Assembly (NCBI GenBank): GCA_919902995.1
Contig: CAKKSD010000032.1
Span: 20,336 to 84,335, forward strand
Origin: Thermodesulfovibrionia bacterium
Lineage (GTDB): Bacteria > Nitrospirota > Thermodesulfovibrionia > JACRGW01
Length of the DNA stretch: 64,000 nt
Direction of reading: 5' to 3'
Below are positions 2,953-61,458 of the stretch, in pieces. Each line of letters begins with the position of its first letter. The stretch's first letter is position 1. The notes under the pieces are model-generated. The model was not told where the DNA came from. It saw only the letters and a list, made by a program, of their open reading frames with translations, and searched no databases. The position numbers were made by a program, and so were the translations under genes.

Positions 2953-3435
2953 TTACCTAACCATTTCTTTCAGTGCCTTTTCTGATTCCCTTCTAAGATC
3001 TTTTTCCTTAATAGCCTCCCTTTTATCAAATAGCTTCTTCCCCCTCGCCATGGCGATCTCTACTTTTGCCCTTCCCTTGGACAGGTATATCTTTAATGGG
3101 ATAAGGGTGAAACCCCTCTGTGTAACCTTTCCTGTTAGCTTCCTGATTTCTTCTTTATGCAAGAGGAGTTTCCTCGTCCTTAAAGGTTCATGGTTATAGA
3201 TATTCCCATGGCTGTAAGGACTAATATGACAGCCAATGAGAAATGGCTCTCCGTCCTTGATAATCGCATAACTATCCTTCAGGTTTGCCTTCCCCTCCCT
3301 CAGGGATTTTATCTCTGTCCCCTTAAGTTCGATTCCTGCCTCCAGGCTCTCCTCTATATGGTAGTCGTGGTAAGCCTTTTTGTTTGAACAGAGTACCCTT
3401 TCTTCTACTTTTTCTTTCATATTAAATGATACCAA
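2953..3435 (-). CDS. smpB: SsrA-binding protein SmpB
   Basis: 160 aa with [11 protein letters not shown] ... [14 protein letters not shown] ... GCHISPY. Canonical SmpB, next to tmRNA. The true start may be the internal MKEKVEE (around 3420). Confidence 0.85.
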
Positions 3436-3437
3436 AA

Positions 3438-4466
3438 TTATTGGGGTTTTACAATAACCTTCCCATCTTCTCCCTCCTGCCTTTCAATTTCAATATTTAT
3501 AGAGAGGAATTTTTTAATAAGCCAGATATTCGTGATGAGGTGCTGTGTTATCCTTGAGGTGGTGAAGGAAGACTCCCCTTTTGCCAAAGAAAGATAAGGA
3601 ACTATCTGATCGGCGAGTCTGGGGTCAAGGGCATTTTCTGAACGATGGAAGGCAAGGAACTCCTCACAGGCCTCCTTTGCAACATCTTCTGCTCTCTTTC
3701 TCCTTTCTCCGAGTGAAGAAAAGCCTGCGGTTAAATTCTCATACTCAGCATTTATAAAGAAAAATGTCCCTCTCCCTATCGAAGGGGCATCTATTAACTC
3801 TATCTCAGCATAAAGATTGCTCTCCTTCAGAATCCTCAAACCCTCTGCCTTCTGCCTTTCTGCTATTGATAAAGGAAGATTAGAAACAGCAGAGATTCCT
3901 CTTACCCTGACAAGTTTACCTCTCTCTCTAATGTCTAAAGTAGAAATCCCTTTTACAGGGTCTATCTCTGCCCCTGCTCTCCCTCCTCCCTTTGGGTACC
4001 AACCATATTTATCTATCCATAACCTTATCTTTAATCCAATCCTTTCAAGGATCGGAATAAATATAGTATCAAGATAATGGAATGGTGGGCTCCAGGGTAC
4101 ATGTGTCCCGCCGATAATCTCAATCCTCGATTTCTCAGCAGTAAGGCTTAGAGGCAACATAATAGCCTGCAGCACAAGGGATGTTGAACCGGCAGTTCCT
4201 ATATCAAAGAAATAATCTCCTCCTCTAACCTCTTTAGGGGAAAATATCAGATTCAAAGAGCCGATCCTATCCCCTTCAACTTGGGCATCAGATATCTCCT
4301 TGACTGCCTTTACAGAGGTAAGATGCTGGGGCTGGAGTCCGGGAACTTTTCTTCCCTTTCTGATATTGAATATTTCTATGGGTCTCCTGAGAAGACATGA
4401 CAGAGAAAGGGCGGTCCTCAGAATCTGCCCTCCTCCTTCACCGTAACTTCCGTCAATCCTGAGCAT
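3438..4466 (-). CDS. rtcA: RNA 3'-terminal phosphate cyclase RtcA
   Basis: 342 aa; N-terminus [23 protein letters not shown] is the RtcA signature. Confidence 0.85.
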
Positions 4467-5091: not shown

Positions 5092-5838
5092 CTACTTATT
5101 ATTAAGTCCGTATATCTCATTCATCTCTTCTGAATAGTTTCCGTTTCTGTCATAGATATAGAGCGGTTTCTCGACCTTCAGTCCTCCGCGTACCCCTTTT
5201 ACCCCCTCTACAAGGACCATCTTCGCCTCTACCCCTTCTTTAGAATGGATGAACCTCAGCCTTTTTGGTTCAAGCTGACATTTTTTCATCCTTGCGAAAA
5301 GCTCTTCCAGTCTGACAGGGTGATAGATAAGATCAAAACGTCCTTTATCCTTAAGGAGTAATCCACTAATTTCCAGAATATCATCAATGGTTACTTTTAT
5401 CTCATGCCTCGCTATTGCCTTTTCTTCTTCAGGACTGATGAGGCCGGTTCTTGCCCTCCTAAAAGGTGGATTTGATACGATTAGGTCAAAACATTTCTCT
5501 TTAAATACTTCCTTCAATTTTTTAATATCCTCTGTAATTACATCTACTCTTCCTTTGAGCTTATTCAGAATCACATTTTTTATGGCTAATCGCGCAAGGC
5601 CTTCCTGCAGTTCGATGGCATAAACCTTTGCCTCAGGATACCTTTTCGCAAGGAGTATCGAGATAATCCCGGAGCCTGCACCAAAATCGGATATATTCGT
5701 GCAGTGAGGAATCTGAACAAAGGAAAACAGGAGAAGGGCATCAACAGAGAAACGGTAGCCCGTCTTTTTCTGGATAATCTTTATATCCCTTATGCTGTCG
5801 AGTGTCTCTGTCTTATCTGAGATTTGCTCGTTTATCAT
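5092..5838 (-). CDS. tRNA (adenine-N6)-methyltransferase, TrmN6/YfiC-like class I SAM MTase
   Basis: 248 aa; DFGAGSGIISILLA (motif I) and NPPF (N6-adenine/N5-glutamine MTase motif IV). Confidence 0.65.
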   Translation of the reverse strand: MINEQISDKTETLDSIRDIKIIQKKTGYRFSVDALLLFSFVQIPHCTNISDFGAGSGIISILLAKRYPEAKVYAIELQEGLARLAIKNVILNKLKGRVDVITEDIKKLKEVFKEKCFDLIVSNPPFRRARTGLISPEEEKAIARHEIKVTIDDILEISGLLLKDKGRFDLIYHPVRLEELFARMKKCQLEPKRLRFIHSKEGVEAKMVLVEGVKGVRGGLKVEKPLYIYDRNGNYSEEMNEIYGLNNK

Positions 5839-6148: not shown

Positions 6149-6375
6149 TATCTCAGTTGAAACCCTATGGCAAAACCACAAGGAATTATCAAGTTAAATA
6201 GATAAAATTGGTTAATTATTTATTGCCATAATTAATAAATCTAATATTATAATTTTAGTTGACATTAATTATGGATATGTGATACTAATAAATTACAGAA
6301 AGGAGGTGGAAATTTTAAATTTTAATGAATTAAGTCATAGACTATATATGTCTTAAGAAAGGATGGTGGTTTTTT

Positions 6376-7266
6376 ATGAAGCGGTTGAGATTATTCCTGA
6401 TCTTACTTTTTATTTCATTTCCATTAGTAGCTTCAGGTGCAGAAAAGGCAAAGACCGTTGATGAACTTGCAAAGATGTACGATGTAAGCTCCTGCAAAAG
6501 GTGTCACAAGAAGCAATTTGCTGAATGGGAAAAGTCCATACATGCCAAGTCCCTTATAGGTACCGGCCGTACCCTTGGAGGGTTTAAGGGATTCATTACT
6601 GGCGGTCTTATGGGAGCTTTCACAAAGTCAGGTGTAAAAGATGTGAAGGATATAAAGATGGATCACTTTGCGATGTGTTTTAAGTGCCATCTACCCCAGG
6701 CGCTAACAAGCGGTACTGATGAACTCGCCAGACAACTCGCAAAGGCCTTTGTCGATGCTGACAGGGAGACACTCGGAAAGTTGAATATCAACTGTAATGT
6801 CTGTCATACCACTAAGGCCCTCATTCATAAATGGCAGGACGGCGAACCTGAAAAGAATGTCACATATGGACCTGCTTTAGAAGGTGACCATGACGACAAG
6901 ATGACACCTAAAATGAAAAAGAGTGTCGTTATGAAAGAGTCTGTTTTCTGCGGACAGTGCCACGGTACAGGGCCTAACCTTGAATTCCCTCAGCCATCGC
7001 AATGTGGAACGATCTATGGAAGCTATCTCCATGCCTATATCCCTGCAGGTGGTACAAAGACCTGTCAGGACTGCCACATGAAAGGTGGCGACAAGGGACA
7101 TCTCATGCCTGCATATCGTGACCCTGATATGCGGAAATGGGGAATGAATGTAGAAGTCGAGACACTCGGTTATAAGTTCCTTCCAAAGGCAGGGGATCTG
7201 GTTCCAACAGCTGTGGTTACAGTAAAAATGACCAATAAGGCTGGTCATAGAATCCCTGATGGGTGA
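6376..7266 (+). CDS. Periplasmic multiheme cytochrome c (5 CXXCH), signal peptide
   Basis: CKRCH, CFKCH, CNVCH, CGQCH, CQDCH; N-terminal hydrophobic leader; strong upstream RBS aggaggtgg/aggatggtgg. Confidence 0.8.
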   Translation: MKRLRLFLILLFISFPLVASGAEKAKTVDELAKMYDVSSCKRCHKKQFAEWEKSIHAKSLIGTGRTLGGFKGFITGGLMGAFTKSGVKDVKDIKMDHFAMCFKCHLPQALTSGTDELARQLAKAFVDADRETLGKLNINCNVCHTTKALIHKWQDGEPEKNVTYGPALEGDHDDKMTPKMKKSVVMKESVFCGQCHGTGPNLEFPQPSQCGTIYGSYLHAYIPAGGTKTCQDCHMKGGDKGHLMPAYRDPDMRKWGMNVEVETLGYKFLPKAGDLVPTAVVTVKMTNKAGHRIPDG

Positions 7267-7293
7267 CCATCCGCACAGAGGCTGGTCCTGGAA

Positions 7294-7644
7294 GTGACCG
7301 CTAAAACAAAGGATGGTAAAGAGATATTCAGGGACTCAAAGATCTATATGCCACAAGCAACTAACAGTCGTGGTGATGCCATGGTCTATGGTGCCCATTT
7401 CAAGATGGGATATAGTCGTGATACAAGCCTGCAACCACTTAAGACGAAGGTAGAGACCTTTGAGATCAAGTTCCCCTATGAAGATGTAGAAAAAGAAAAA
7501 GGTAAACCCAAGGTCAGGGAAATAAAGGCTAAAGAAATGGATGTGACTGTAGAACTACGTTATCAACTTGACCCTGCTCCAGGTGAACCTGATAAAGACA
7601 GCTTCAGTTACTATAAAGATACCAAAAAGGTAACAATTCAGTAG
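7294..7644 (+). CDS. Downstream ORF in the same frame as the cytochrome, separated only by one TGA (possible C-terminal portion via readthrough, or a separate small protein)
   Basis: 6376 and 7294 are in the same frame. A single TGA at 7264-7266 in context UGAC. No convincing RBS ahead of ATG 7294. A terminator follows at 7663-7698. Confidence 0.35.
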   Translation: MTAKTKDGKEIFRDSKIYMPQATNSRGDAMVYGAHFKMGYSRDTSLQPLKTKVETFEIKFPYEDVEKEKGKPKVREIKAKEMDVTVELRYQLDPAPGEPDKDSFSYYKDTKKVTIQ

Positions 7645-7662
7645 AAATTAATCCTCAGAAAA

Positions 7663-7698
7663 AGCCCACCCCCAGCTTACCGGGGTGGGTTTTTTTAT
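7663..7698 (+). terminator. Rho-independent terminator
   Basis: gcccacccc-agcttacc-ggggtgggt followed by ttttttt. Confidence 0.7.
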
Positions 7699-7811
7699 TC
7701 CCTACCCAATATATATCTTGACAAATAGACAGAGGCAAATATAATGGAGCATTATCAACTTATGTTGACTGTTGGATCTGTATTTCAAAATCCTTTTCAG
7801 ACGGAGATATA

Positions 7812-8016: not shown

Positions 8017-10170
8017 ATGATAAGAGGTCTATTCTCAAAAAGTTTGAGTCTTAAGGTTGCAATCACGGTAATAGCTGTTCTGACTGTGCTGGGCGGTGGT
8101 TCGTTTGTCTATATATACAATAAGATACAGAACCAGCTTATAGATGCCCAGAAAAGGGAGGCATTGACGCTCGCTTCTACCCTGAACAGTAGCCTTTCCG
8201 CCATGATGTTAAAGGGCGGAGGACTGAACCCTGAGGAGATACAGGTCATCTTTATAGCGTTATTAGAGAGAAAGGAGGTAAAAAATGCTGTTGTATACGG
8301 CCACAACGGCCGACGGGTATTTACAAATCATGAATCAGAGAGAAATACCATTATAAACAGAGATAAAGAGGAAGAATGTCTTGTCTGCCACAGGCTTTCG
8401 CCTGACAAGATGCCGCTTACGCAGTTTATAGATCTCCCAGGCAAGGGGAGAATTCTGCGCGCAGTGGCTCCGATAGTCAAGAAAGAGGCATGTCTCCAGT
8501 GTCATTTCACCGGTTCAAACATGGGTTTTGTTCTGCCCAATGAAAAATATCGCGGCATGGTGCTCGTTGACATGGAAACAAAAGAGATGGAATCCCAGAT
8601 GTTTGCAATCCTTGTGGCGGGAATAGCGACATATCTTGCCATAATATTAGCCGTATATTTTGTTTTGAGGAGGCTTGTAACACGACCTCTAAATGATATT
8701 GTAAATTCTGTTACTAAGATAGCTACCGGTGACCTGACTGCAGACATTAAGATTAGTTCAAAGGACGAGGTTGGTACCTTGGCTGTTGCCTTTAAGGAAA
8801 TGGCATCAAACTTAAGCGAAATACTTAAAAAAACAAAAACATTATTTACAAATGTAGATTCAGCAGTAAAGAAGATTGTAGATGGGGCAACCAGCATAAG
8901 GAGGGGTTCTGAAGACCAGGCAACCGCCATGACTGATGTCTCATTTTCTGTGGAAGGGCTTCATAAGATGGCACTCGACATTGCTAATGGTATGGAGCAG
9001 TCTTTGAAGCTATCTGAAAAGACATCGTCTTCTATCCTTGAGATGGCTCTATCTATTGAAGAGGTAGATGGAAATGTGGCTGAAATTACTTTCGCTGTTG
9101 AGGATACATCAACCTCTATAGAAGAGATCGCAAGCTCCCTCAAAGAAGTTGCTATTGGGACAGATAATATATCCAAAGGCGCAGACGAAATAGCCTCATC
9201 GCTTATCCAGATAGATACATCCGCAATGGAGATAGAGAGACATTCAGGTGAGGGAGCAGGACTTTCGAATGAAGTTGCGAGGGAAGGTGAGATGGGTCTA
9301 AAGGCTGTAGGACGTACCCATGCAGGGATGGAAACAATAAAGGGAGAAGTCAAAAAACTTGCAACGGTTATAGAAGAACTCGGTCAGAGGTCAAAGGAAA
9401 TTGGAAAGATCTTGAATGTAATTGATGATGTAGCAGTAGAAACCAACCTACTCGCATTGAATGCCACAATCCTCGCCGCCCAGGCAGGAGAACATGGTAA
9501 GGGTTTTGGTGTTGTAGCACATGAGATAAGGGAACTATCGGAGAGAACCTCTGCTTCAACAAAGGAGATTACTGGTATAATATCGGGTATTCAGAGCCAG
9601 ATAGGAAAGGCAGTGGTATCGGTTGAGGAAACGATTGCAAAGGTTACAGAGGGAGAAAAACTCTCTATAGACACAATCGGGATACTTGAAGGGATAACGG
9701 GAAGATTCAAGACATTCCAGGATATGAGTCTTAAGATTTCAAGGGCAACACAAGAACAAACAAGGGGGAGTAAGGAAGTAACACAGAACATGGAAGACAT
9801 TACTGCCACCATTCACCAGATTGCAAGGGCAACGCAGGAACAGTCACAGGGAAGTACCCAGATAGTAAATTCTTTAGAAAATATGAAAGAACTTATATCG
9901 CATCTTAAAAAGTTAACTTCTGAACAGGCAGAAGGCAGCAAGGTGATAGCATCTAATACGGAAAAGATGATGAGGTTTATCCAGGATATAAATGTTCTCT
10001 CTTCTGACCAGGAAAAGGAAAGCCAGAGGATATCTGCTGCTGTGATGGAAACCACGACTATCGCAGGTGCAGGAATGGAGAATACGAGTTACTTAGAAGA
10101 GATAGTTAATGTTCTGAAAAAGGAGGTCGAGACATTAAAAGAGGGGTTGGAACAGTTTAGATTGGAATAA
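8017..10170 (+). CDS. Methyl-accepting chemotaxis protein with periplasmic di-haem (2x CXXCH) sensor domain, HAMP and long MCP signalling domain
   Basis: TM1 LKVAITVIAVLTVLGGGSFVYIY, periplasmic CLVCHR and CLQCHF, TM2, HAMP, MCP signature LLALNATILAAQAGEHGKGFGVVAHEIRELSERT. Confidence 0.85.
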   Translation: MIRGLFSKSLSLKVAITVIAVLTVLGGGSFVYIYNKIQNQLIDAQKREALTLASTLNSSLSAMMLKGGGLNPEEIQVIFIALLERKEVKNAVVYGHNGRRVFTNHESERNTIINRDKEEECLVCHRLSPDKMPLTQFIDLPGKGRILRAVAPIVKKEACLQCHFTGSNMGFVLPNEKYRGMVLVDMETKEMESQMFAILVAGIATYLAIILAVYFVLRRLVTRPLNDIVNSVTKIATGDLTADIKISSKDEVGTLAVAFKEMASNLSEILKKTKTLFTNVDSAVKKIVDGATSIRRGSEDQATAMTDVSFSVEGLHKMALDIANGMEQSLKLSEKTSSSILEMALSIEEVDGNVAEITFAVEDTSTSIEEIASSLKEVAIGTDNISKGADEIASSLIQIDTSAMEIERHSGEGAGLSNEVAREGEMGLKAVGRTHAGMETIKGEVKKLATVIEELGQRSKEIGKILNVIDDVAVETNLLALNATILAAQAGEHGKGFGVVAHEIRELSERTSASTKEITGIISGIQSQIGKAVVSVEETIAKVTEGEKLSIDTIGILEGITGRFKTFQDMSLKISRATQEQTRGSKEVTQNMEDITATIHQIARATQEQSQGSTQIVNSLENMKELISHLKKLTSEQAEGSKVIASNTEKMMRFIQDINVLSSDQEKESQRISAAVMETTTIAGAGMENTSYLEEIVNVLKKEVETLKEGLEQFRLE

Positions 10171-24816: not shown

Positions 24817-25572
24817 TTACTCTATCTTCAACATTATCCATCCACCCTCAGAGAAGTTCTTCCTGCCACCCCTGTCATTTTTTTCACCATCCCAGATAGC
24901 GATAGCCAGAGGCACTGTCTTCCCAGATGTAAGGACCGTATCTGATTTGTCACCGGAATTGAGAGGCTTAAGTATTACCACCTTCCAGTGGGCGTAGTCC
25001 CAGAAGCCTTTACCTTTAGAGTTCTGTCTCTCCTGGCTTGTAAGTGTACCAAAGCCTTCCGCATTAAGTTCCTCTACTGAAAGGGTTACAATGGGGTTAG
25101 AGAGTAAGTTACCTACAGAAAGACCTGGCATATAGCCCATCGTAATATCCTTTTCCCATGAAGCCCTCCACTGGATAATATGCACAGGACTTCCTTTCTG
25201 TCCCATCATGAAGGTAGGCTCTTCATCTGCATTCACAGGAAACTGCAAGGCACTGGCATCAGAGAATCTATCAGGCATATTGACCGTGTCATTCCTTGTT
25301 GGATCATACCATTCAATCCTGAAGGCGATATCTTTACCGTTATGGAGAGACCCTATCTTTATTGAAGGAACGGTTGACTCTGTAATACCTGGTTTTACAA
25401 TATTCTGAGGTGCCATAGGAACGGCAATTCCTTCTGCTGTGTTCCATCTGCTGTCCATTGGGTCGAGAGGAAGGTTACCTTTGACAGCCTTAGAGATGAC
25501 AATTGTTTCCGCGAAAGAATAAGATATAAAACTTATCGTCAAAATCAAGACAATCAGAAACAGTCTTTTCAT
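24817..25572 (-). CDS. Secreted ethylbenzene-dehydrogenase-like (EB_dh/DOMON-type) haem-binding domain protein
   Basis: Signal peptide MKRLFLIVLILTISFISYSFA with strong RBS (aaggagag). The long beta-rich domain resembles the EB_dh family; family call is from recall. Confidence 0.5.
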   Translation of the reverse strand: MKRLFLIVLILTISFISYSFAETIVISKAVKGNLPLDPMDSRWNTAEGIAVPMAPQNIVKPGITESTVPSIKIGSLHNGKDIAFRIEWYDPTRNDTVNMPDRFSDASALQFPVNADEEPTFMMGQKGSPVHIIQWRASWEKDITMGYMPGLSVGNLLSNPIVTLSVEELNAEGFGTLTSQERQNSKGKGFWDYAHWKVVILKPLNSGDKSDTVLTSGKTVPLAIAIWDGEKNDRGGRKNFSEGGWIMLKIE

Positions 25573-25709
25573 GGTTCTCTCCTTATTCTTATCCATCCTG
25601 AGGATATCTACTGTCAATATTTAAAATTGCAAAACTATACACAAGATATTTTTCTTGAATAATTATTAAAATATTTATAAAATAAAGCCCTCTAACGAAA
25701 GGAAATACC

Positions 25710-29179: not shown

Positions 29180-29554
29180 TTATTGTTTCAGATGCTGACT
29201 CACAATCTGTAAAAGTTCCTGTATCAGAATCGGCTTCGTTAAATAGGCGCTTGCCCCGAGCGATAATGCCCTTTTTCTATCCTCTTCAGCCCCTTCTGTT
29301 GTAATCATTATTATAGGGACATCCTTTTTGGCTGGATCTGCCCTTACGAGGCTAACAAACTTAAGACCATCCATAACAGGCATATTTATATCAACAAAAA
29401 GCATGTCAAAATTCTGACCTACCATCTTTTTCAGTGCATCAACACCATCAGTAGCCTCCACTACCTTTGCCTTCTGGATCCTTTTAAGGGCAAAGGTGAT
29501 CAGTTGCCTCATCGTCGGTGAATCTTCAACTATAAGAAAGTTTATATCTGACAT
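29180..29554 (-). CDS. cheY: CheY-like single-domain response regulator
   Basis: 124 aa receiver, phospho-acceptor D in FDMLFVDINMP, K in YLTKP. Confidence 0.85.
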   Translation of the reverse strand: MSDINFLIVEDSPTMRQLITFALKRIQKAKVVEATDGVDALKKMVGQNFDMLFVDINMPVMDGLKFVSLVRADPAKKDVPIIMITTEGAEEDRKRALSLGASAYLTKPILIQELLQIVSQHLKQ

Positions 29555-29585
29555 CTCTAATCCCCCTTCAAAATATGGTGCCTTC

Positions 29586-30410
29586 TCATAGAGGTTTCTC
29601 GTTTAGAAGGTCAATGAAAGTCTGGATTGTTGTCAGTTTTCCTTCGGATTGCGTATAGAGCTTCGAAGAAAATATTGCCGTTGCTGTATGGCCGACTAAA
29701 AGATTGAAGAGTTCATAGTCAACATTTATAAAGCCCTTTTTCTGTATAAGGAGTGAATAGATTGCTATTACTCCTATTACTTTTTCTTTGATCTTAAGGG
29801 GTATGCAGACTACTGGTTTAGAGAGGTCTTTTGAGGTGCGTCCTGGAACAAGTTCTTCAAAGTAACTTTCTCCTGTTATTACTACCTCTCCTATAATCCC
29901 TTCTCCAGACTTTACTTTAGGGATATCTTCCTTATTAAGTCCCTCAGAGGCGATCACTTTTAGCTCTTCTGTCGTTTCATCCACAATCATAATAGCAAAT
30001 CTTTCAGCCCCGATGAGATTTGATACTATCTCGATAACAGTTCTTAATACCTCATTAAAATCGAGTGTGGAGTGGAGCTGGTAGCTTGCCACATACAGGT
30101 TAGCAAGATTATTATTCTCCTCTTCTACATCCAGATATTTAGCAGCAAAGTCTTTATTCTCTGCCTCCACCTGTCTATACCTCTCTTGAATCTCTTTCTT
30201 CTCTTTCTCTAAGATACGACTACGCTCCTCAAGGAATTTTACCCTGTTCTTACCCCTTTCCTTCAGTTCTTCCTCAAGCTCAACCAATTTAAACCTTAAC
30301 CTCTCATTCTCTTTAAGAAGTTCCTGTGTAAATTCCTCACCTTTTCTGAATATCTGAAGGAACTCCTCAGACTTTTTCTGAATTTTGCCTTCTTCTTTTC
30401 TGAGTCCCAA
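29586..30410 (-). CDS. Coiled-coil + GAF domain protein
   Basis: N-terminal about 100 aa heptad-rich (LKENERLRFKLVELEEELKE..), C-terminal GAF-like fold (FAIMIVDETTEELKVIASEG ... VCIPLKIKEKVIGVIAIYS). Confidence 0.55.
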   Translation of the reverse strand: MGLRKEEGKIQKKSEEFLQIFRKGEEFTQELLKENERLRFKLVELEEELKERGKNRVKFLEERSRILEKEKKEIQERYRQVEAENKDFAAKYLDVEEENNNLANLYVASYQLHSTLDFNEVLRTVIEIVSNLIGAERFAIMIVDETTEELKVIASEGLNKEDIPKVKSGEGIIGEVVITGESYFEELVPGRTSKDLSKPVVCIPLKIKEKVIGVIAIYSLLIQKKGFINVDYELFNLLVGHTATAIFSSKLYTQSEGKLTTIQTFIDLLNEKPL

Positions 30411-30437
30411 GTTATACCTCCCCTTTTAGTACCAAAT

Positions 30438-30508
30438 AGAGATTGCTTTGGCTCCGCCTCGCAATGACAGATAGGGAGCGTCATTCCGAGCGAAGCGAGG
30501 AATCTCGT
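30438..30508. repeat. Family B palindromic repeat (diverged copy)
   Basis: gagattgctttggctccgcctcgcaatgaca ... gtcattccgagcgaagcgaggaatctc. Confidence 0.6.
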
Positions 30509-30511
30509 TAT

Positions 30512-31576
30512 TTATTTCTCCTCCGTCATACACCTCTTGATAATTTCCTCAGGTATTTCCTTCAACGGGAGTATCTTATCAGCAGCCCCTGCAGTTATAA
30601 CCTCCTGTGGCATCCCAAATACAACAGAGGTTTCCTCAGACTCTACAATGGTCTGACCCTTATGCTCTTTTATCGCCTTCATACCATCCTTCCCATCGTT
30701 TCCCATTCCTGTAAGAATAACACCAAGTACCTTTCTTCCATAAACTGCTGCGGAAGACTTCATCATCAGATCTACCGAAGGGACATACTTATCAGTATTA
30801 CTTTTCCTTCTTAGTATTGTCTTAATATTTTCTCCCTTCTTTTCCAGGACCATATGATAACCTCCAGGTGCTATAAGAATCTTCCCCCTTTCAACAGTAT
30901 CTTCATCCTCGGCCTCTTTTACATAGAGGGGAGATATGGTATCAAGTCTTTCAGCAAAATGTTTTGTGAATCCTTCAGGCATATGCTGGGATATAACGAT
31001 CCCTGCAGGAAGGTTTTTCGGGAGTCTCAAAAGGATTGCCTGAATTGCAGGAGGTCCACCTGTTGATGCACCGATCGCAATAAGTTCAACTCCCTTTGGC
31101 TCAGGAAATACCTCTTCAACCTCTCTATACTTACTGCTATCACTCGTAAGGAGATCAAGATTAGCCTTCATCTTAGACATTTCAAGATGTGCGACTGCGC
31201 CAATCTTCTCTATAAGTTCATCTTTGATCTTCTGCAGTTCAGGTGATGCCCTGGCTGTCGGCTTTAAAATAAAATCTACTGCACCAAGCTCAAATGCCTT
31301 AAGGAAACTCCTGTCATCCGCGTAGAAGCTTACTACTATGACAGGTAGAGGGGATTCTTTCATTACCCATCTAAGGAAAGCGAAGCCATCCATAACCGGC
31401 ATCGCTAAATCGAGTGTCACTACATCAGGCTTGAATTTTATCACCCTTGACATCGCCTCCTTACCGTTAGAAGCGGTGCCGATTACATCGATAAAGGATG
31501 TCTGCTGAAGCATCCTTGTTATTGTCTGGCGGCTATACGGAGAGTCATCTACAACAAGAACCCTTATCTTCTCCAT
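30512..31576 (-). CDS. cheB: Protein-glutamate methylesterase/glutaminase CheB (REC + methylesterase)
   Basis: N-terminal receiver plus C-terminal CheB catalytic domain (GASTGGP ... HMPEGFT ... DGKDG). Confidence 0.9.
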   Translation of the reverse strand: MEKIRVLVVDDSPYSRQTITRMLQQTSFIDVIGTASNGKEAMSRVIKFKPDVVTLDLAMPVMDGFAFLRWVMKESPLPVIVVSFYADDRSFLKAFELGAVDFILKPTARASPELQKIKDELIEKIGAVAHLEMSKMKANLDLLTSDSSKYREVEEVFPEPKGVELIAIGASTGGPPAIQAILLRLPKNLPAGIVISQHMPEGFTKHFAERLDTISPLYVKEAEDEDTVERGKILIAPGGYHMVLEKKGENIKTILRRKSNTDKYVPSVDLMMKSSAAVYGRKVLGVILTGMGNDGKDGMKAIKEHKGQTIVESEETSVVFGMPQEVITAGAADKILPLKEIPEEIIKRCMTEEK

Positions 31577-32448
31577 CCCATCTCTCCTGTTAATACCGAT
31601 CTGGTGGGTTTCTGGTAAACAAGGTCATTCTTGAAATGCCTCAGCATGAAGTCTGTAGAAATATTCATTAAAGACTCGGAGTGACCTAAAAGGAGATAAC
31701 CCTCTTCTGTGAGTCTATCATAAAAATTATTGATTACCTTCTTCTTCGTGTCCCTGTCAAAATATATAATTACATTCCTGCAGAATATCACATCCATCTT
31801 ACCAACAAATCTTACCTTGAACGGATCTACGAGATTCAGAAGACTGAAGTTCACCAAACTCCTTACAGGATCCACAATTCTGTAATTCCCTTCTCCCTCG
31901 TCTGTGAAATACTTTCTGATATAATGATCATCTATACTTCTGAAGGCGTTCTTTCTGTAAATTCCTCTCCTTGCTGCATGAAGAACCCTCTGGTTTATAT
32001 CACTCCCCAGTATCTCTATCTCCCATTCAGGCATGAGATTTTTCTCAAGGATCAATATCGCAATTGTATAAGGCTCTTCACCTGTAGAACAACCTGCTGA
32101 CCATATCCTGAGTCTTTTTCTATCCTTCTTCCTCTCACCGATTTCAGGGATGATCTCATCGCTTAATGCCTTAAGCTGAGAGAACTCTCTAAAGAAGTAG
32201 GTCTCATTTACTGTCAGAATTTCTATTACCGATGTCAGCTCTTCATCTCTTCTTTTATCATACATCAAAAAATGGTAATAATCCTCAAAGTTATTTAAGA
32301 GATAATTCTCTACCCTCCTCGATAGTCTCTTCTCTAGGAGGAATTTGGATCCATCGTCGAAATATATTCCACAATAATTCCTTATAAAATCACGGATGAG
32401 CCTGAATGTATCATCAGACATCTTGAACGGCTCCTCTATCCCTATCAT
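31564..32448 (-). CDS. cheR: Chemotaxis protein methyltransferase CheR
   Basis: 294 aa; CheR N-terminal helical domain and SAM MTase domain (RIWSAGCSTGEEPY). Confidence 0.9.
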   Translation of the reverse strand: MIGIEEPFKMSDDTFRLIRDFIRNYCGIYFDDGSKFLLEKRLSRRVENYLLNNFEDYYHFLMYDKRRDEELTSVIEILTVNETYFFREFSQLKALSDEIIPEIGERKKDRKRLRIWSAGCSTGEEPYTIAILILEKNLMPEWEIEILGSDINQRVLHAARRGIYRKNAFRSIDDHYIRKYFTDEGEGNYRIVDPVRSLVNFSLLNLVDPFKVRFVGKMDVIFCRNVIIYFDRDTKKKVINNFYDRLTEEGYLLLGHSESLMNISTDFMLRHFKNDLVYQKPTRSVLTGEMGWRR

Positions 32449-34445
32449 TTCTTTCCTTTAAGTATATCATCCGCTGTCTTTCTGACCACTTCGTCTTCAT
32501 CTGTCTCAGCTACTTTAACGATATATTCTTTAACCTCCTTCTCAGAAAATCTCCCCAATATTTCCAATGCTGCCTTCCTTACACCCCAGTCTCTATCCGA
32601 AAGAAGAGGGAGAAGCTCCTTTAAGATTTCAATAGCCTGAACCTGATTAAAGGCCAGTTTAGAAAGTGTTCTGATGGTGATCTTTTTTAGTTCAGGGTCT
32701 TTTTCTCTAAGTAGTCTTAAGAGGTACGGAAGTGCTGACATATCTCTTATCTCTCCCAATGCCTCGATTACAGAGATCCTTACCATGTGGTCTTTATCAT
32801 CAAGGAGTTCGATAAGCGGAAGGACGGCATCTGGATTCTTAAGTTTTCCAATACCTCTTGCAACTGATGCTCTTACCCTGCTATTTTCATCTTTAAGAAG
32901 TATGATAAGGGAATCAATCCCCTTTTTATAACCAATTTCTCCGATGGCAATGGCCGATGCCATTTTTACCCGTGGTTTCTCATCGGTCAAGGCTGAAATT
33001 AAAAATCTTCCTGCCTCATCTCCCCCAATCATACCGAGTGCCTTAACAGCCGCCTCCCTTACTTCAGGTGATTCATCTTTGATAACAAAGCCAAGGGCTG
33101 AGACCGCCTTCTTCGCCCTTATCCTGCCTAAGATCAGGGCTATATTCTTTCTAAGATTTGATACCTTTGAAGAAAGCATAGGAAGGAGTTGTTCTACCTC
33201 AGCCCCTATCTCGACTATGGCAGTTACGGCAGATTCCTGGACATCATCGTATTCATCATTAAGGAAATCCATGAGTGGGGTTATAGCCCTTCTATCCTTT
33301 ATCTTCCCTAAGGCTATCATTGAGTTTCCCCGTACATGCCCGTCTTCATCAGATAGGGATTTTATCAGTGCCTCAACAGCATTACTATCACCTATCTCTC
33401 CTAAGAGATGGGATATACATCTCCTGATAATATTATCTGGGCTATCTAAGAAAGGGATAAGGGCATGGATAACACCACCCCTTCCGAGAATTAAGAGTGC
33501 CTCCATTATATCTTCTTGAAGTTCGTCTTCCTGGAGAAGATTTACAAGTGGCTCAACAGCCCTTTCATCCCCCACCCATCCTAAAAGCCTTACGGATGCT
33601 AATTTTATCTGAGCCTTCTCTCTTTTGAGTGACTGGAGCAGATAGTCTGATATCTCTCTATCAATATTTTCCTTTATAATTGTGATGACCTCATTATCCC
33701 GAGGGTTTTTCTTAGAAATATCTAAAATAACCTGCATTGCGATTTCTCTGATTGACCTCGAAGGATCCTTCAAGAATTTTATAACCGGAGCCAGTGCCCT
33801 TTTATCCCCAAGGGCACCAAGACCTTTTAAGGCTGCCTCTCTCAGTGGTTTCTCTTTAAGGGCATCAAGAAGTGGCTCGAGAACCCTTGAATCTCCAATA
33901 TTACCGATTGCAATAGCAGCAGGATAGCTAAGCCAGAGTTCCTTCTTTTTAAATATCTTCAAAAGGGGCTCTATTGCCTTCTCATCTCTCATCCTACCGA
34001 TATGTTCTATTGCAGAGAATCTGACATTATCATCCCTATCTGTTAATGCCTTAATAAAGAGAGGAGTAGCCATACTATCTCCAACTTCTCCAAGTATATC
34101 GACGATGAATTTTCTGACATCTTGATGAGCGTCCTCAAAACTGTTTATAAGAAATGGAACTCCCTCTTTACCTATCCCTATGAGTGCCTCAATAGCAGAA
34201 TTTCTCACCCCCGGGTTATCCTGAATACTAAGAGCTGAGATAAGGGCATCTATCACCCTTTTACCACCGATCTTGAGGAATGATTCAACAGAGGTCTTCC
34301 TGACACGCCAATCAGCATCTCCCAAGGTCTTAAGGAGGTGAGGGATAGATTCCTCACCATAATCAGCAAGCCCCAGGGAAGCTAATCTTCTTGTTTCCAC
34401 ATTTTCATCATCAAGGTTTTTTATCAGATCGGCGAAACTATCCAA
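32445..34445 (-). CDS. HEAT/PBS-lyase repeat protein (about 20 repeats)
   Basis: 666 aa of tandem about 31-aa units (VRxxAxxALGxIGDxxAVxxLxxLLxD). Embedded in the che operon. Confidence 0.75.
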   Translation of the reverse strand: MDSFADLIKNLDDENVETRRLASLGLADYGEESIPHLLKTLGDADWRVRKTSVESFLKIGGKRVIDALISALSIQDNPGVRNSAIEALIGIGKEGVPFLINSFEDAHQDVRKFIVDILGEVGDSMATPLFIKALTDRDDNVRFSAIEHIGRMRDEKAIEPLLKIFKKKELWLSYPAAIAIGNIGDSRVLEPLLDALKEKPLREAALKGLGALGDKRALAPVIKFLKDPSRSIREIAMQVILDISKKNPRDNEVITIIKENIDREISDYLLQSLKREKAQIKLASVRLLGWVGDERAVEPLVNLLQEDELQEDIMEALLILGRGGVIHALIPFLDSPDNIIRRCISHLLGEIGDSNAVEALIKSLSDEDGHVRGNSMIALGKIKDRRAITPLMDFLNDEYDDVQESAVTAIVEIGAEVEQLLPMLSSKVSNLRKNIALILGRIRAKKAVSALGFVIKDESPEVREAAVKALGMIGGDEAGRFLISALTDEKPRVKMASAIAIGEIGYKKGIDSLIILLKDENSRVRASVARGIGKLKNPDAVLPLIELLDDKDHMVRISVIEALGEIRDMSALPYLLRLLREKDPELKKITIRTLSKLAFNQVQAIEILKELLPLLSDRDWGVRKAALEILGRFSEKEVKEYIVKVAETDEDEVVRKTADDILKGKK

Positions 34446-34469
34446 GATTTTTTCTCCTAAATACTCTCT

Positions 34470-34610
34470 GTCATTCCTGCGGAAGCAGGAATCCAGAGAA
34501 ACAAAAAACTGGATTCCGCATCAAGTGTCGAAGACCCGACCCATAGGGCGGAATGACAGAAATAAGGTAACCCTGTAGCAAGCTACAGGGAATTATCAAG
34601 TTGATTAAAT
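34470..34610. repeat. REP-like cluster (gtcattcctgcggaagcaggaatccag; ctggattccgcatcaag..ggcggaatgac; ccctgtagcaagctacaggg + ggaattatcaagtt)
   Basis: Family A members plus a tail motif shared with 6150-6200. Confidence 0.7.
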
Positions 34611-34624
34611 CCGTGAAATCAATC

Positions 34625-35098
34625 TTATGCCTTTTCAGTATCTTCTATTGATTCAAGAACAAGCATCTCTTCGGTAGAGAGGATCTTATCGAGATTCAGT
34701 ATTATTATTAACTTTTCCCCTACCTTTCCAACACCTTCGAGATATTCGGTTTTTATTCCCTTAACGATAGTTGGGGGAGACACTATATCTTCCCTTGAGA
34801 GACAGCGTACATCACTTATTCCATCCACCTGAAGTCCAACTATCTCTTCCCCTACCCGGATTAATAATATCCGTTCATTCCCATGTCTGTCAGTAGGTTC
34901 AATACCGAATCTTTTTCTGAGATCTACTATAGGGATAACCTTTCCTCTCAGGTTTAACACCCCCTCTATAAAATCCGGACTCATAGGAAGTCTTGTTACC
35001 TTTTGTGGTCTAAGAATCTCAACCACTCTCATTATATCTATCGCATATTCCTCTTCACCTACGGAAAAAATAGCTAATCTGGTTTCTTGATCTTCCAT
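34625..35098 (-). CDS. cheW: Chemotaxis coupling protein CheW
   Basis: 157 aa single CheW domain. Confidence 0.9.
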   Translation of the reverse strand: MEDQETRLAIFSVGEEEYAIDIMRVVEILRPQKVTRLPMSPDFIEGVLNLRGKVIPIVDLRKRFGIEPTDRHGNERILLIRVGEEIVGLQVDGISDVRCLSREDIVSPPTIVKGIKTEYLEGVGKVGEKLIIILNLDKILSTEEMLVLESIEDTEKA

Positions 35099-35115
35099 AT
35101 AAATCAGTCCTTGAG

Positions 35116-36810
35116 TTATTTTACCTTAAATACCTCAACTACTCTTTTCAGGTCTTCAGCATCCTTCCTGATGCCATTCATAGCAAGATCTATCTCTGAG
35201 GCTATATCCATTCCTTCCACAGCCACGGTCTTAACCTCGTCGATAGACCGAAGGATGGATTCAGTCCCGATTCTCTGTTCTTCTGTTGCCTTTGATATTA
35301 GCCGTGTCTTCTCCACAGTACTTTCAACAACTGAGCCTATCTGCCTGCTCCCACTTGACTGGTCTTCCATAGCCTTTTTCACATGTTTAGATATACTATC
35401 TACAACCTCCATTGCCTTCACAATCTGGTCTGTCCCGTTCCTGAGTTCACGGATTGCATTCGCAATATTAACTATCATATCTTTTACTCTTTCAACAGAT
35501 TCAGTCACCTGTTTCACACCCCGCGCCTGTTCAACAGCTGCCCCTTCTATGCCCTTTGCTGCAACCTGGGACTGTTGTGAAGAATGGATGATCGTCCTTA
35601 AGGCATCACCTACTGCGTAAACCAGTTTATTACCATCATCTACCCTTATAAGACCTTCCTTCATTATATCCACAGTATCCTGTGTCTCCTGCTGGATCGT
35701 AACTATCAGATCGGATATCTCCTTTGTAGAAGCAGAAGTCTTCTCTGCAAGTTCCCTGATCTCTTCTGCCACAACAGAAAAACTTTTACCGTGTTCCCCT
35801 GCCTGGGCAGCCAAGATTGCTGCGTTTAATGCCAGGAGGTTTGTCCTGGAGGTTACTGCATCAATAACAGCAACGATCTTATTTATCTCCAATGATCTCT
35901 CTTTCAGGCGGTTTACAGAATCCCCTGCTTTTTTAACGGAATCTCTAACCCTGTCCGTACCATCTATAGCATCAACAATAGAGAGCATTCCGAACTCCGA
36001 TGCATCAATAAGAACCTTCTCTGCAAGCCTTGCGGATTCCTTTGTGTTATCTACTACGGTTCCTATAGCGGCATTAATCTCTAATGTGGCTGCCCCTGTC
36101 TCTGATATAGTCTCTTCCAGGAACTCTGCACTTCTTGCAAGTTCTCTGGCAGAAGCCACCATCTCCTCTATGGAAGCCAATGTTTCAGAGATTGTATCTG
36201 AAAGTCTGAAGGTATTTTCGGCAACCTCTTCTATCGAGGAACCTATCTCAAGTACAGAAGATGAAGTTTCATCTGCAGATGTAGAAAGTGTAGATACAGA
36301 GTTTGCAATTTCCCTGATAGAAAAATTTAACTCCTCTACTGAGGAAGCGGTCTTCTCAACAGCCTCAACCTGGCTCCTTGCACCTTCCGCCATTCTCTTA
36401 GAGTTAAGTCCTATTTGTCCAGATGCAATTGAAACATTAACAGCAGATGTCTTGACCTTTCTTACTAACTCACCGAAATTTTCGATTATTCTGTTTATCG
36501 CCCTCTCTATATATGTAAACTCATCACCCGAATTAATCTTTATCATAGTTGTAAGGTCTCCCTCAGAAACCTTCTTGGTAGCCTCAACCACTTTTCCCAA
36601 TGGTTTTATCACTGCCTTCCTCAACAGAACCTGAAGTGCCACTGCCAAGAAGATCACACCTGCAAAAGCTATAAGTATAAGTTGTGGTATATTCTTCTTC
36701 AGTTCCAATGCTAAGACTATAAGGAAGCCCATCTCGATACATAGGATTGCAACTGTTAGAAAGAATAATTTTCCTGCTAATTTTCCTTTAAAGCTTCCAG
36801 GTTCCGCCAT
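35116..36810 (-). CDS. Methyl-accepting chemotaxis protein (2 TM, no periplasmic sensor, HAMP + MCP signalling)
   Basis: MCP signature NLLALNAAILAAQAGEHGKSFSVVAEEIRELAEKT. Confidence 0.85.
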   Translation of the reverse strand: MAEPGSFKGKLAGKLFFLTVAILCIEMGFLIVLALELKKNIPQLILIAFAGVIFLAVALQVLLRKAVIKPLGKVVEATKKVSEGDLTTMIKINSGDEFTYIERAINRIIENFGELVRKVKTSAVNVSIASGQIGLNSKRMAEGARSQVEAVEKTASSVEELNFSIREIANSVSTLSTSADETSSSVLEIGSSIEEVAENTFRLSDTISETLASIEEMVASARELARSAEFLEETISETGAATLEINAAIGTVVDNTKESARLAEKVLIDASEFGMLSIVDAIDGTDRVRDSVKKAGDSVNRLKERSLEINKIVAVIDAVTSRTNLLALNAAILAAQAGEHGKSFSVVAEEIRELAEKTSASTKEISDLIVTIQQETQDTVDIMKEGLIRVDDGNKLVYAVGDALRTIIHSSQQSQVAAKGIEGAAVEQARGVKQVTESVERVKDMIVNIANAIRELRNGTDQIVKAMEVVDSISKHVKKAMEDQSSGSRQIGSVVESTVEKTRLISKATEEQRIGTESILRSIDEVKTVAVEGMDIASEIDLAMNGIRKDAEDLKRVVEVFKVK

Positions 36811-36851
36811 CGCAACTTTCCTCCAATCGGTTCTCCTAAAAAACCGTTAAT

Positions 36852-39341: not shown

Positions 39342-39420
39342 GATCCATGATACATGATGTCTGAAAGTTTCGTGTATCTTGTATCATGCATCTTGTATCC
39401 CTTTCCTTATATCTTCATGA
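39342..39420. repeat. TGTATC/CATGAT short-repeat cluster upstream of the MCP-PhnD gene
   Basis: gatacatgatccatgatacatgatg ... gtgtatcttgtatcatgcatcttgtatccc. Confidence 0.55.
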
Positions 39421-40090
39421 CCTCTTCGATATTAAGGAGGCCAATGAATCTATCATCCACCAGGCTTATCCCTTCGAGAAAGTCTGCCTCTATACCTGTG
39501 ATAATAGTAGGAGTAGAATCTATAGACTCCCTAAGGAGTTTAATGACTCCAAGAACCTCATCAACCACAGCACCTATAGTCTCGTTCCTTATTGAGAATA
39601 TAAGAATTCTTCTCTTTTTATCCTGCTGAATTCCTTCCAGACCCAATCTTTCCTTGAGATCAAAGACAGGGATGATCTCCCCCCTTAAGGATGTTACACC
39701 CTTTAGATAGGAAGGTGTTCTCGGAACAGGTGTTATCTCGAGAGGTTTGAGTATTTCCCTTACATAATCTATCTTCACACCGTAAATCTCATCCCCAAGC
39801 CTGAAGGATATTACCTCAACTATTGACTCTTCTTCGCTGTATGGTAAAGAAGGAATCTCCTGAATCTCTTCCCTCACCTCTTTGGTTAACTCAACCTCGC
39901 CTGATTGTAAAAGTATCACTGTCTCTCCCTTTTCAATTGATATTGCCTCTTCTGTCCTCTTCCCTTCTGCTTGAAGATTTGATTCAGCATCCTCAGTCTT
40001 TCCCCGAACCTCTTTCTGTGTTAAGTCCTGGGGTTTTTCTTCCTTCGCCTTCTCCTGCTGTGCCTTTTTCCTAATATTCACAAGATCCAT
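39407..40090 (-). CDS. CheW-domain protein with about 80-aa charged N-terminal extension
   Basis: C-terminal 150 aa is a CheW fold. N-terminal region is K/E-rich and low complexity. Confidence 0.75.
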   Translation of the reverse strand: MDLVNIRKKAQQEKAKEEKPQDLTQKEVRGKTEDAESNLQAEGKRTEEAISIEKGETVILLQSGEVELTKEVREEIQEIPSLPYSEEESIVEVISFRLGDEIYGVKIDYVREILKPLEITPVPRTPSYLKGVTSLRGEIIPVFDLKERLGLEGIQQDKKRRILIFSIRNETIGAVVDEVLGVIKLLRESIDSTPTIITGIEADFLEGISLVDDRFIGLLNIEEVMKI

Positions 40091-40104
40091 CTAATTCTCC
40101 TTGT

Positions 40105-40917: not shown

Positions 40918-41045
40918 ATCAAAATCCTAGTTCAAAAATGATTCAAGATGCATGATGCCTGATGCACGTATCGTACTTCTGTCATTCTGTATCAGGCATC
41001 TTTTATCGGGCATCCTGCATCCTGTATCGTGCATCTTATTTTAAA
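40918..41045. repeat. CATGATGC / TGTATC repeat cluster with inverted repeat atgcctgat..atcaggcat between cheA and the exeA-like gene
   Basis: gatgcatgatgcctgatgcacg ... ctgtatcaggcatc ... gcatcctgcatcctgtatcgtgcatct. Confidence 0.55.
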
Positions 41046-49693: not shown

Positions 49694-49831
49694 AAAGACT
49701 TTGTGGTTAACTTAAGTATGGTTCTGTTATTGAAAATGAGTTTTTGTGATGCCTTTAAAGTAGCAAACAGCAACATCCAATAAAACAAGGATTGAAACTT
49801 AGACCGTATACCCACTTGCAAACCCTTCCTT

Positions 49832-61439: not shown

Positions 61440-61458
61440 GATTTACTAAGGAGGGATT

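Follow-up and report, generated by a model that had tools for sequence, protein, structure and literature searches.

A pentahaem cytochrome c gene split at an in-frame UGA very probably encodes the selenoprotein MccSep (ExtKL) in a Nitrospirota-like bacterium

Results

The gene at positions 6376–7644 of the window (the whole stretch of DNA that was analyzed, 64 kb in length; the gene and its signals all lie on the forward strand) is a typical representative of MccSep/ExtKL, a published family of selenoproteins that reduce polysulfide. It is neither a pseudogene nor an error, and no new form of recoding is involved. Very probably, this is a single gene whose product is a periplasmic c-type cytochrome selenoprotein with five haems, MccSep (ExtKL), and in which a single in-frame UGA is decoded as selenocysteine (Sec). 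The reference enzyme, MccSep (ExtKL, GSU2937-2936) from Geobacter sulfurreducens PCA (PDB 9wt8, 9wt9 and 9wta-c; Mihara et al., Sci Adv 2026, PMC13510729), is a periplasmic pentahaem polysulfide reductase, and 637 homologues are described from mainly Desulfobacterota and Nitrospirota (Thermodesulfovibrionia), often from groundwater (PMC13510729).

A single reading frame interrupted by one UGA

The first open reading frame, 6376–7266, begins with ATG and encodes 296 residues before it ends at TGA 7264–7266, which is followed by C. The same frame then stays open from 7267 to the TAG at 7642–7644, and the second called ORF (GTG 7294–7644, 116 residues) lies in it, 27 nt past the TGA; the preliminary description was therefore right that two ORFs share one frame with only this TGA between them. 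Read through the UGA, the mccsep/extKL coding sequence spans 6376–7644 as 422 codons, with codon 297 as the candidate Sec codon, and matches both NF040886 and PDB 9wt8/9wt9. The start signals were read directly from the sequence. A Shine-Dalgarno-like purine tract, AAGGATGGTGG, lies at 6359–6369 (AAGGA..GGTGG, 6–16 nt 5′ of the ATG), and no comparable ribosome-binding site is found at proper spacing upstream of GTG 7294, which sits within the 3′ arm of the hairpin described below; the claim that the second ORF lacks start signals of its own holds. So does the claim that a strong terminator appears only after it: the intrinsic terminator at 7658–7700 consists of a 15-bp stem (arms 7658–7672/7682–7696), a 9-nt loop and a T tract (−24 kcal/mol by RNAfold), and was missed by a consensus terminator scan because of the length of its loop. 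The ORF–TGA–ORF arrangement is not a chance occurrence, as 52 related loci have the same TGA, after which the frame continues for 101–137 codons (for 28 at one locus). No other credible in-frame TGA junction was found in the 64-kb window.

The joined protein is a member of the MccSep/ExtKL family

The joined protein was compared with NF040886, the NCBIfam equivalog "multiheme c-type cytochrome (seleno)protein ExtKL", and scores 492.7 bits over profile positions 27–422 of 423, against a curated cut-off of 250 bits. The part before the UGA covers positions 27–314 (368.2 bits) and the part after it covers positions 316–422 (99.8 bits alone, E = 1.3e-28), so that the UGA falls exactly on the one missing column, position 315. 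Alignment to the G. sulfurreducens MccSep structures (PDB 9wt8/9wt9) likewise runs end to end across the UGA, over residues 20–421 with E about 5e-107. The preliminary description was right to treat the two ORFs as one gene.

The pentahaem assignment made in the preliminary description is borne out by the translation, in which five CxxCH motifs are found, all of them invariant columns among the aligned homologues: CKRCH (C40–H44, 6493–6507), CFKCH (C101–H105, 6676–6690), CNVCH (C140–H144, 6793–6807), CGQCH (C192–H196, 6949–6963) and CQDCH (C230–H234, 7063–7077). Geobacter residues R83, H122, C239, U325 and K372 align with R65, H105, C210, the UGA at codon 297 and K343, respectively. In the Geobacter enzyme, R83 functions in anion and substrate binding, H122 is the proximal ligand of the active-site haem 2 and K372 makes a water-mediated contact to Sec (PMC13510729). 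Arg65 (6568–6570) and Lys343 (7402–7404) are the counterparts of R83 and K372, and Cys210 (7003–7005), an invariant column, is that of C239, which supplies the distal ligand to haem 2; the H122/C239 pair is strictly conserved in the family, and by this alignment haem 2 is predicted to be ligated by H105 and C210. Family membership is clear, the frame is single and every catalytic residue is conserved. The N-terminal segment MKRLRLFLILLFISFPLVASG (6376–6438), examined by eye in the translation, resembles a Sec-type signal peptide without a lipobox cysteine; a periplasmic location, as in Geobacter, is predicted.

The UGA occupies a selenocysteine/cysteine column

The orthologue alignment proposed in the preliminary description gives a consistent picture at the UGA (7264–7266, codon 297, motif AGHRIPDG-U-PS, equivalent to Geobacter U325 and to NF040886 position 315). 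The equivalent codon is TGA in 52 of the 57 related genomic loci and TGC or TGT in the other five, and all eight full-length homologues that were aligned carry Cys in this column. Replacement of the UGA always by Cys, never by Trp or any other residue, is the signature of Sec. The TGA-bearing loci span Nitrospirota, Desulfobacterota, Planctomycetota and others, and conservation restarts at the codon directly after the TGA, with P-S/T-P-N-R-L-V-L. Around 110 of the best 120 database homologues end after ...PDG, at lengths of 291–312 residues.

In G. sulfurreducens, Sec was demonstrated by ESI-MS on the peptide VEMTNHAGHSIPDGUPTPNR, along with 0.96 Se per subunit (PMC13510729); the window counterpart of this peptide is VKMTNKAGHRIPDG-U-PSAQR. 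Together, these comparisons strongly support UGA 7264–7266 as a Sec codon, and we infer that Sec is inserted in the window organism as well. The preliminary description had leaned away from Sec because its reader could fold no SECIS element; the Sec/Cys column, the NF040886 match across the UGA, the MccSep structure and a conserved, covarying hairpin all oppose that judgment.

A conserved SECIS-like hairpin follows the UGA

RNAfold places a 9-bp bulged hairpin at 7280–7302 (GGC.GGUCCU-GGA-AG.GACCGCU; −7.2 kcal/mol alone), with an apical loop that starts 21–23 nt past the UGA, and closes it with a 7-bp lower helix formed by 7266–7272 (5′ arm, ACCAUCC) and 7311–7317 (3′ arm, GGAUGGU). The 4-bp GGUC/GACC stem put forward earlier as the best SECIS candidate was only the core of this structure. 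Criteria of the bSECISearch type, attributed to Zhang and Gladyshev (2005), reportedly call for a stem-loop in the coding sequence directly 3′ of the UGA with its apical loop roughly 16–37 nt downstream, and the hairpin at 7280–7302 has this geometry.

Because RNAalifold returned an empty consensus structure for the 51-sequence, 45-nt alignment, the named structure was tested by pair counting. The hairpin core is 89% paired in the 51 orthologues, compared to 21–61% in slid controls, and compensatory changes are found in four of its six pairs; the compensatory cells number 10 against 1.6 in shuffles, none of the 500 shuffles reaching 10. The same orthologues show constraint at synonymous positions: the fourfold-degenerate sites of codons +7, +8, +10 and +11 past the UGA have the four lowest entropies of the whole gene (0.16–0.64 bit versus a mean of 1.81). 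Sec-type loci fold with a mean energy of −9.6 kcal/mol, compared to −3.4 to −8.6 kcal/mol for the five loci of the Cys type (p = 0.0016). For the lower helix, 74.7% of cells are paired in the 31 PS/PT-type orthologues versus 24–39% in slid controls, which supports it as a likely feature of the PS/PT-type clade to which the window belongs, not of the family in general.

Statistics on the window sequence itself are weak. The window hairpin folds with −8.2 kcal/mol versus −5.0 ± 2.0 kcal/mol in synonymous recodings, of which 6.9% fold as well, and a 91-nt fold gives z = −1.17; it is the comparative data that point to a SECIS element. Rfam searches of the whole window (gathering thresholds) and of 7200–7400 (E ≤ 10) detected no SECIS family. 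The matches that were returned (miRNA, snoRNA, group II intron and glmS) were dismissed as chance.

The putative element resembles the SECIS of the E. coli fdhF type in that an in-frame UGA is directly followed by a stem-loop that is itself coding sequence. The apical loop comes about 20–25 nt downstream and has G and U residues (here U26, G27, G31 and U32, invariant or nearly so), and there is a bulged U. It differs from it in its unrelated sequence, lacking any Rfam match, and in the position of the bulged U, which here lies on the 3′ side in the minimum free energy fold.

Alternative explanations for the interrupted frame

The preliminary description listed four options for the interrupted frame, of which the Sec codon has been upheld, whereas a pseudogene or nonsense mutation and a sequencing error have not, in view of the 52 loci and of four identical assemblies. 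The remaining one, SECIS-independent readthrough at UGA-C, would have the codon read at some frequency by a near-cognate Trp or Cys tRNA, so that an ordinary amino acid is incorporated and products of 296 and 422 residues both arise. This reading would suit the weak termination at UGA-C known from E. coli and the C that comes after the TGA in 48 of 53 Sec-type sequences; it would also suit the window, in whose 64 kb neither selA, selB or selD nor tRNA-Sec was found (tRNA search; about 50 ORFs scanned). However, it is the conserved following codon, Pro (CCN) or Leu (CUN), that fixes this C, and the replacing residue in homologues is Cys without exception. Readthrough is also at odds with a hairpin conserved at SECIS distance, under synonymous constraint, that Cys-type genes lack or have in weaker form, and with the Geobacter orthologue, in which Sec was measured directly and the U325A change abolishes activity (PMC13510729). 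No observation requires readthrough, and we consider it improbable.

Inactivation of the gene at codon 297 by an event so recent that the downstream frame survives could be proposed from the output of gene callers, which split the gene in two, and from the lack of a ribosome-binding site before the downstream ORF. Against this stand the identical TGA codon in 52 loci across phyla, the 125 intact downstream codons with their family-profile match of E = 1.3e-28, and conservation that sets in with the first codon past the TGA. A TGA conserved across phyla together with a conserved downstream domain in effect excludes a pseudogene, whose probability we regard as very small. Smaller still is that of a sequencing or assembly error at 7264–7266, which has only its prior possibility in its favor: all 1,269 nt of the gene, TGA included, agree without a single difference among four independent assemblies from different samples and assemblers (ENA Hainich H51 R1 and R3, Logan SRR22387886 and Logan ERR3858122), whose flanks differ (96.8–100% identity), and this excludes such an error for practical purposes. 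The identical 296-residue product was also read on ten contigs. Equally negligible is the arrangement that ORF callers report, in which a cytochrome gene ends at 7266 and an independent 116-residue protein starts at GTG 7294. That GTG has no ribosome-binding site and belongs to the 3′ arm of the hairpin. Orthologues conserve the nine codons between TGA and GTG (PSAQRLVLE); full-length proteins of the Cys type contain them too, and the chain in the crystal structure has this segment resolved.

Relationship to Geobacter MccSep and genomic neighborhood

The Sec-containing MccSep reading places the window protein alongside the Geobacter enzyme in detail: both have the five CxxCH motifs at aligned positions, the AGH-x-IPDG-U-P motif, the C-terminal domain after Sec, the His and Cys residues at the ligand positions of haem 2, the R83/K372 pair (R65/K343) and an N-terminal signal-like sequence. 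The two differ in sequence, with roughly 46% identity (an estimate taken from the tblastn identity of the Geobacter-derived locus L016), and in genetic context, the window gene being monocistronic, flanked by a divergent methyltransferase gene and an MCP gene, and outside any extHIJKLMNOPQS cluster. They also differ in hairpin register, which is GGUC/GACC with the loop at nt 25–32 after the U of UGA in the window, and CCGAC/GUCGG with the loop at nt 20–26 in Geobacter-type loci. The window gene belongs to the Nitrospirota/Thermodesulfovibrionia MccSep clade (represented by ENH01_02100 in PMC13510729), which includes GenBank proteins named "multiheme c-type cytochrome ExtKL [Nitrospirota bacterium]" such as P0078, and does not differ from it substantially. 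The same TGA, the PS-P/A-N/Q-R-L-V-L-D/E-V-T-A-K context and the same hairpin are shared, and the closest relatives, at 58–86% identity, are mostly Nitrospirota MAGs, many from groundwater. A more distant parallel is found in TsdA and SoxAX, which share a catalytic haem with a distal Cys ligand and S–S chemistry (comparison from PMC13510729), but which lack Sec, have another fold and haem count and work in the oxidative direction; the window protein gives no significant sequence match (SoxA, E = 0.18).

The neighbors of the window gene are a divergent tRNA/HemK-type methyltransferase, a methyl-accepting chemotaxis protein (MCP) and a hemerythrin-like protein. The Geobacter Ext neighbors (rhodanese-like ExtH, porin-like ExtI and the small ExtJ) are absent beside it; these neighbors do not define the MccSep family itself. 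Clustering of flanking ORFs across 54 orthologous loci revealed no conserved neighbor outside one four-locus group with common flanking ORFs (L016, which is Geobacter-derived, L018, L024 and L025), and tblastn of the window flanking proteins against 80 loci gave no match. The MCP chemoreceptor (8017–10170), directly downstream of mccsep, has a periplasmic domain with two CxxCH motifs. System II cytochrome c maturation genes, for haem attachment, are present in the window at 59877–62565.

Discussion

A working model for the window gene can be assembled from these features and the Geobacter precedent. UGA 7264–7266 would be decoded by Sec-tRNA(Sec) brought by SelB. A SECIS stem-loop beginning at the UGA itself, made up of the lower helix (7266–7272/7311–7317) and the hairpin (7280–7302), would recruit SelB. 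Translation would stop at TAG 7642–7644 to give a product of 422 residues, and transcription would end at the terminator at 7658–7700. By homology with the G. sulfurreducens enzyme, a homotetramer that reduces polysulfide and selenite and in which Sec and Cys are essential in vivo (PMC13510729), Sec297 would adjoin haem 2, with its predicted ligands His105 and Cys210, and act as the nucleophile on polysulfide, or selenite. The resulting Se–S(n)–S(Cys) intermediate would be reduced via the five-haem electron chain, with release of sulfide; polysulfide is the likely physiological substrate.

In Geobacter, MccSep is essential for elemental-sulfur respiration. The stand-alone gene without Ext partners, adjoining a CxxCH-bearing chemoreceptor, raises the thought that MccSep in this groundwater Nitrospirota lineage works under other physiological conditions than in Geobacter, serving sulfur disproportionation or the sensing of, or taxis toward, polysulfide or S0 instead of classical S0 respiration. 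The difference in hairpin register would, on this reading, hint at repeated remodeling of the SECIS inside a single protein family. We hold this reading to be rather unlikely.

Published work already covers the family together with its Sec codon, structure and distribution among Nitrospirota (PMC13510729, PMC13188914); no new question is opened here, and the main value of the result lies in annotation. Gene callers split the gene into a 296-residue "cytochrome" and a 116-residue hypothetical protein, and so hide the selenoenzyme; this happened in each of the four public contigs that were examined and for the majority of database homologues. With the correct call, this groundwater Nitrospirota-like organism becomes a likely user of selenium and reducer of polysulfide or S0.

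The split cytochrome gene is one MccSep/ExtKL reading frame

The gene opens at ATG 6376, which is preceded by a purine-rich AAGGATGGTGG tract, and its 296-codon frame with five CxxCH motifs ends in a TGA at 7264–7266, with C as the next base. The same frame is then open from 7267 to TAG 7642–7644; ORF callers recover this downstream part only from GTG 7294 (116 aa). The sequence matches the preliminary description in these respects, including the strong terminator said to follow the second ORF: a 15-bp stem (7658–7672/7682–7696, −24 kcal/mol) precedes a T tract, and was missed by a consensus scan solely because its loop is 9 nt. The gene is a single reading frame merely split by ORF callers.

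The upstream ORF matches the NCBIfam equivalog model NF040886 ("multiheme c-type cytochrome (seleno)protein ExtKL") at profile positions 27–314 with 368 bits, and translation of the downstream frame from the first codon past the TGA gives a match to positions 316–422 (99.8 bits, E = 1.3e-28), so that the UGA fills exactly the single profile column between them. Joined by a placeholder Cys, the two parts score 492.7 bits against the cut-off of 250. Residues 20–421 of the joined protein align (E ~5e-107) with PDB chains titled "Multiheme cytochrome c selenoprotein (MccSep)" (9wt8, 9wt9 and related entries), placing Geobacter R83, H122, C239, U325 and K372 opposite R65, H105, C210, UGA codon 297 and K343, respectively; the catalytic residues are conserved. 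The structures originate from the work of Mihara et al. (Sci Adv 2026, PMC13510729) on Geobacter sulfurreducens GSU2937-2936 (extKL), two annotated genes that yield one periplasmic pentahaem protein containing 0.96 Se per subunit. Its Sec was found by ESI-MS in the peptide VEMTNHAGHSIPDGUPTPNR, compared with VKMTNKAGHRIPDG-U-PSAQR at the junction here; the enzyme is a polysulfide (and selenite) reductase, and U325 and C239, the latter a haem-2 ligand, are each essential for S0 respiration in G. sulfurreducens (PMC13510729). The selenoprotein status of the family had been proposed before that work (PMC5877670), and a 2026 review counts it among the known prokaryotic selenoprotein families (PMC13188914).

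Conservation at the UGA position

About 110 of the best 120 protein homologues are 291–312 aa long, covering about 70% of the query; all seven of the shortened homologues that were aligned end in ...PDG, and all eight aligned full-length homologues (397–438 aa) carry Cys at the UGA column, in GHR[IFY]PDG-C-PS/T. The preliminary description had proposed aligning orthologues at this codon. Among 80 related loci taken from species-representative genomes for DNA comparison, 52 have TGA there, followed by 101–137 in-frame codons (28 in one), and five (L013, L030, L035, L051 and L053) have TGC or TGT. The TGA loci derive from MAGs with the labels Nitrospirota/Thermodesulfovibrionales, Desulfobacterota (Desulfobulbaceae, Geobacter, Caldimicrobium and Desulfomonilaceae), Brocadiaceae/Planctomycetota and others, and the closest relatives of the gene are mostly groundwater Nitrospirota MAGs. 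Nine of the loci (L060, L067, L069, L071, L072, L075 and L077–L079) are more distant multihaem cytochromes that keep AGHxxP[TS]G, with V, L, M, A, I or F in place of Sec or Cys; the Sec/Cys residue thus marks the MccSep subfamily in a broader fold family.

These comparisons, together with replicate assemblies, refute three other readings of the interruption. A separate downstream gene is ruled out because amino-acid conservation starts again with the codon directly after the UGA (P-S/T-P-N-R-L-V-L-D-V-T-A-K). The identical 296-aa product is present on ten contigs. Four of these were fetched; they stem from different samples and different assemblers and match the window at every one of the 1,269 nt of the gene, TGA included, with flanks that differ (96.8–100% identity). 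This match between independent assemblies excludes a sequencing error. The comparative and replicate data likewise refute a pseudogene. Readthrough of the UGA independent of any SECIS is very improbable: it fits poorly with Cys as the only replacement ever seen, and is made unnecessary by the comparative evidence and the hairpin for Sec.

A conserved SECIS-like hairpin follows the UGA

The best SECIS candidate had earlier been taken to be a 4-bp GGUC/GACC stem, which RNAfold extends to an upper hairpin, GGC.GGUCCU-GGA-AG.GACCGCU (7280–7302, −7.2 kcal/mol alone), on a lower helix, ACCAUCC/GGAUGGU (7266–7272/7311–7317), whose first base is the A of the UGA; the two combined reach −19.5 kcal/mol over 63 nt. 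The apical loop starts 21–23 nt after the UGA, within expectation for a bacterial SECIS. The fold statistics of the window alone are modest (z = −1.17 for the 91-nt fold, with 6.9% of synonymous recodings folding as well), and it is the comparative data, rather than these, that decide the SECIS question.

In 51 Sec-type (TGA) orthologues, a six-pair core (columns 19–24 with 33–38, numbered from the U of UGA) has standard pairs in 89% of cells, against 21–61% in slid controls. Both sides vary in four of the six pairs, and compensatory cells number 10 versus 1.6 in shuffles (0/500 shuffles reach 10); for example, GGUC/GACC becomes GAUC/GAUC, or GGUG/CACC in locus L059. The folding energy of the hairpin region averages −9.6 ± 2.3 kcal/mol in 53 Sec-type sequences and lies between −3.4 and −8.6 in the five Cys-type genes (Mann–Whitney p = 0.0016, without phylogeny correction). 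Third-position entropy was also compared across 53 conserved fourfold-degenerate codon sites of the whole gene, and the four lowest values fall at codons +7 (GUC), +8 (CUG), +10 (GUG) and +11 (ACC) after the UGA, which form the hairpin arms and loop (0.16–0.64 bit versus 1.81 bit on average elsewhere, p = 0.0019). The family match, the Sec/Cys column and this conserved, constrained hairpin overturn the earlier leaning against Sec.

The lower helix is 74.7% paired within the clade of the window, against 24–39% in controls, and is not general. Geobacter-type genes have a shifted hairpin, CCGAC-UGGUUCU-GUCGG, and Brocadia-type genes yet another register; no Rfam model matches the hairpin, and RNAalifold returned no consensus structure. 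The fifth-lowest entropy (0.81 bit versus the mean of 1.81) is at Gly codon −1 (7261–7263), which is GGC in 82% of orthologues in the alignment of 51 Sec-type loci and GGG in the window. This suggests that the sequence context 5′ of the Sec codon is under selection too.

Genomic surroundings

The gene is monocistronic, with an AT-rich region containing promoter-like sites upstream, beyond which lies a divergent methyltransferase gene (5092–5838). Downstream of the terminator is a perfect sigma-70-like promoter (7718–7745), and the next gene (8017–10170, + strand) encodes a methyl-accepting chemotaxis protein (MCP). Its predicted periplasmic domain, flanked by two hydrophobic segments, contains CxxCH twice, as CLVCH and CLQCH (about residues 121–162), and the protein may be a chemoreceptor that binds c-type haem. 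A hemerythrin-like gene follows. The cytochrome and MCP genes stand next to each other in four independent contigs of this lineage and not in orthologous loci of other lineages. No Geobacter Ext partners are present near the gene, and no conserved neighbour emerges from 54 orthologous loci, save in a four-locus group including the Geobacter-derived L016. ResB-like and CcsA-like genes of System II cytochrome c maturation stand side by side at 59877–62565 (+ strand), consistent with c-type haem attachment; this machinery would be expected to load the five haems of the selenoprotein. The window (41.5% G+C) contains no selA, selB, selD or tRNA-Sec, and no other candidate in-frame UGA.

Elsewhere, a tmRNA gene (tag ANQELALAA) adjoins smpB (2463–2812 and 2953–3435, − strand), followed by an RtcA RNA 3′-phosphate cyclase gene (3438–4466). 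An ORF at 24817–25617 (− strand) resembles the haem b gamma subunit of the type II DMSO-reductase family (TIGR03477, E = 2.4e-45, below the curated cut-off), with no alpha or beta subunit adjoining. A large chemotaxis cluster (29180–43070, − strand) encodes a CheY-like protein, a GAF protein, CheB, CheR, a 666-aa HEAT-repeat protein, CheW, two MCPs (one fused to a phosphonate-type periplasmic binding domain), a CheW-domain protein, an AAA protein and CheA. Between rodA (48563–49693) and a radical SAM gene (49832–52486), a lone 37–39-nt sequence ending ATTGAAAC (49760–49798, + strand) matches Rfam CRISPR-DR7 with 42.1 bits (gathering score 37). The window has no further copy (≤3 mismatches), and none of the scanned ORFs is a cas gene; the sequence is either an orphan repeat or a match by chance.

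Discussion

A UGA followed by C is a weak RF2 context. The C may help Sec to compete with termination, and is equally explained by the conserved next codon, Pro or Leu. On the established bacterial model of Sec decoding and the G. sulfurreducens work (PMC13510729), SelB with GTP and Sec-tRNA(Sec) would bind the hairpin with the ribosome at the UGA, leading to insertion of Sec297. Once the protein was exported and haem-loaded, the Sec297 selenolate would attack polysulfide, forming a Se–S(n)–S bridge to the haem-2 ligand Cys210 that would be reduced by electrons from the five-haem chain.

From its sequence, the gene appears to be a routine, correctly functioning member of MccSep/ExtKL. This family is already known (published, structurally solved and covered by a curated HMM), and the value of the result is mainly for annotation.
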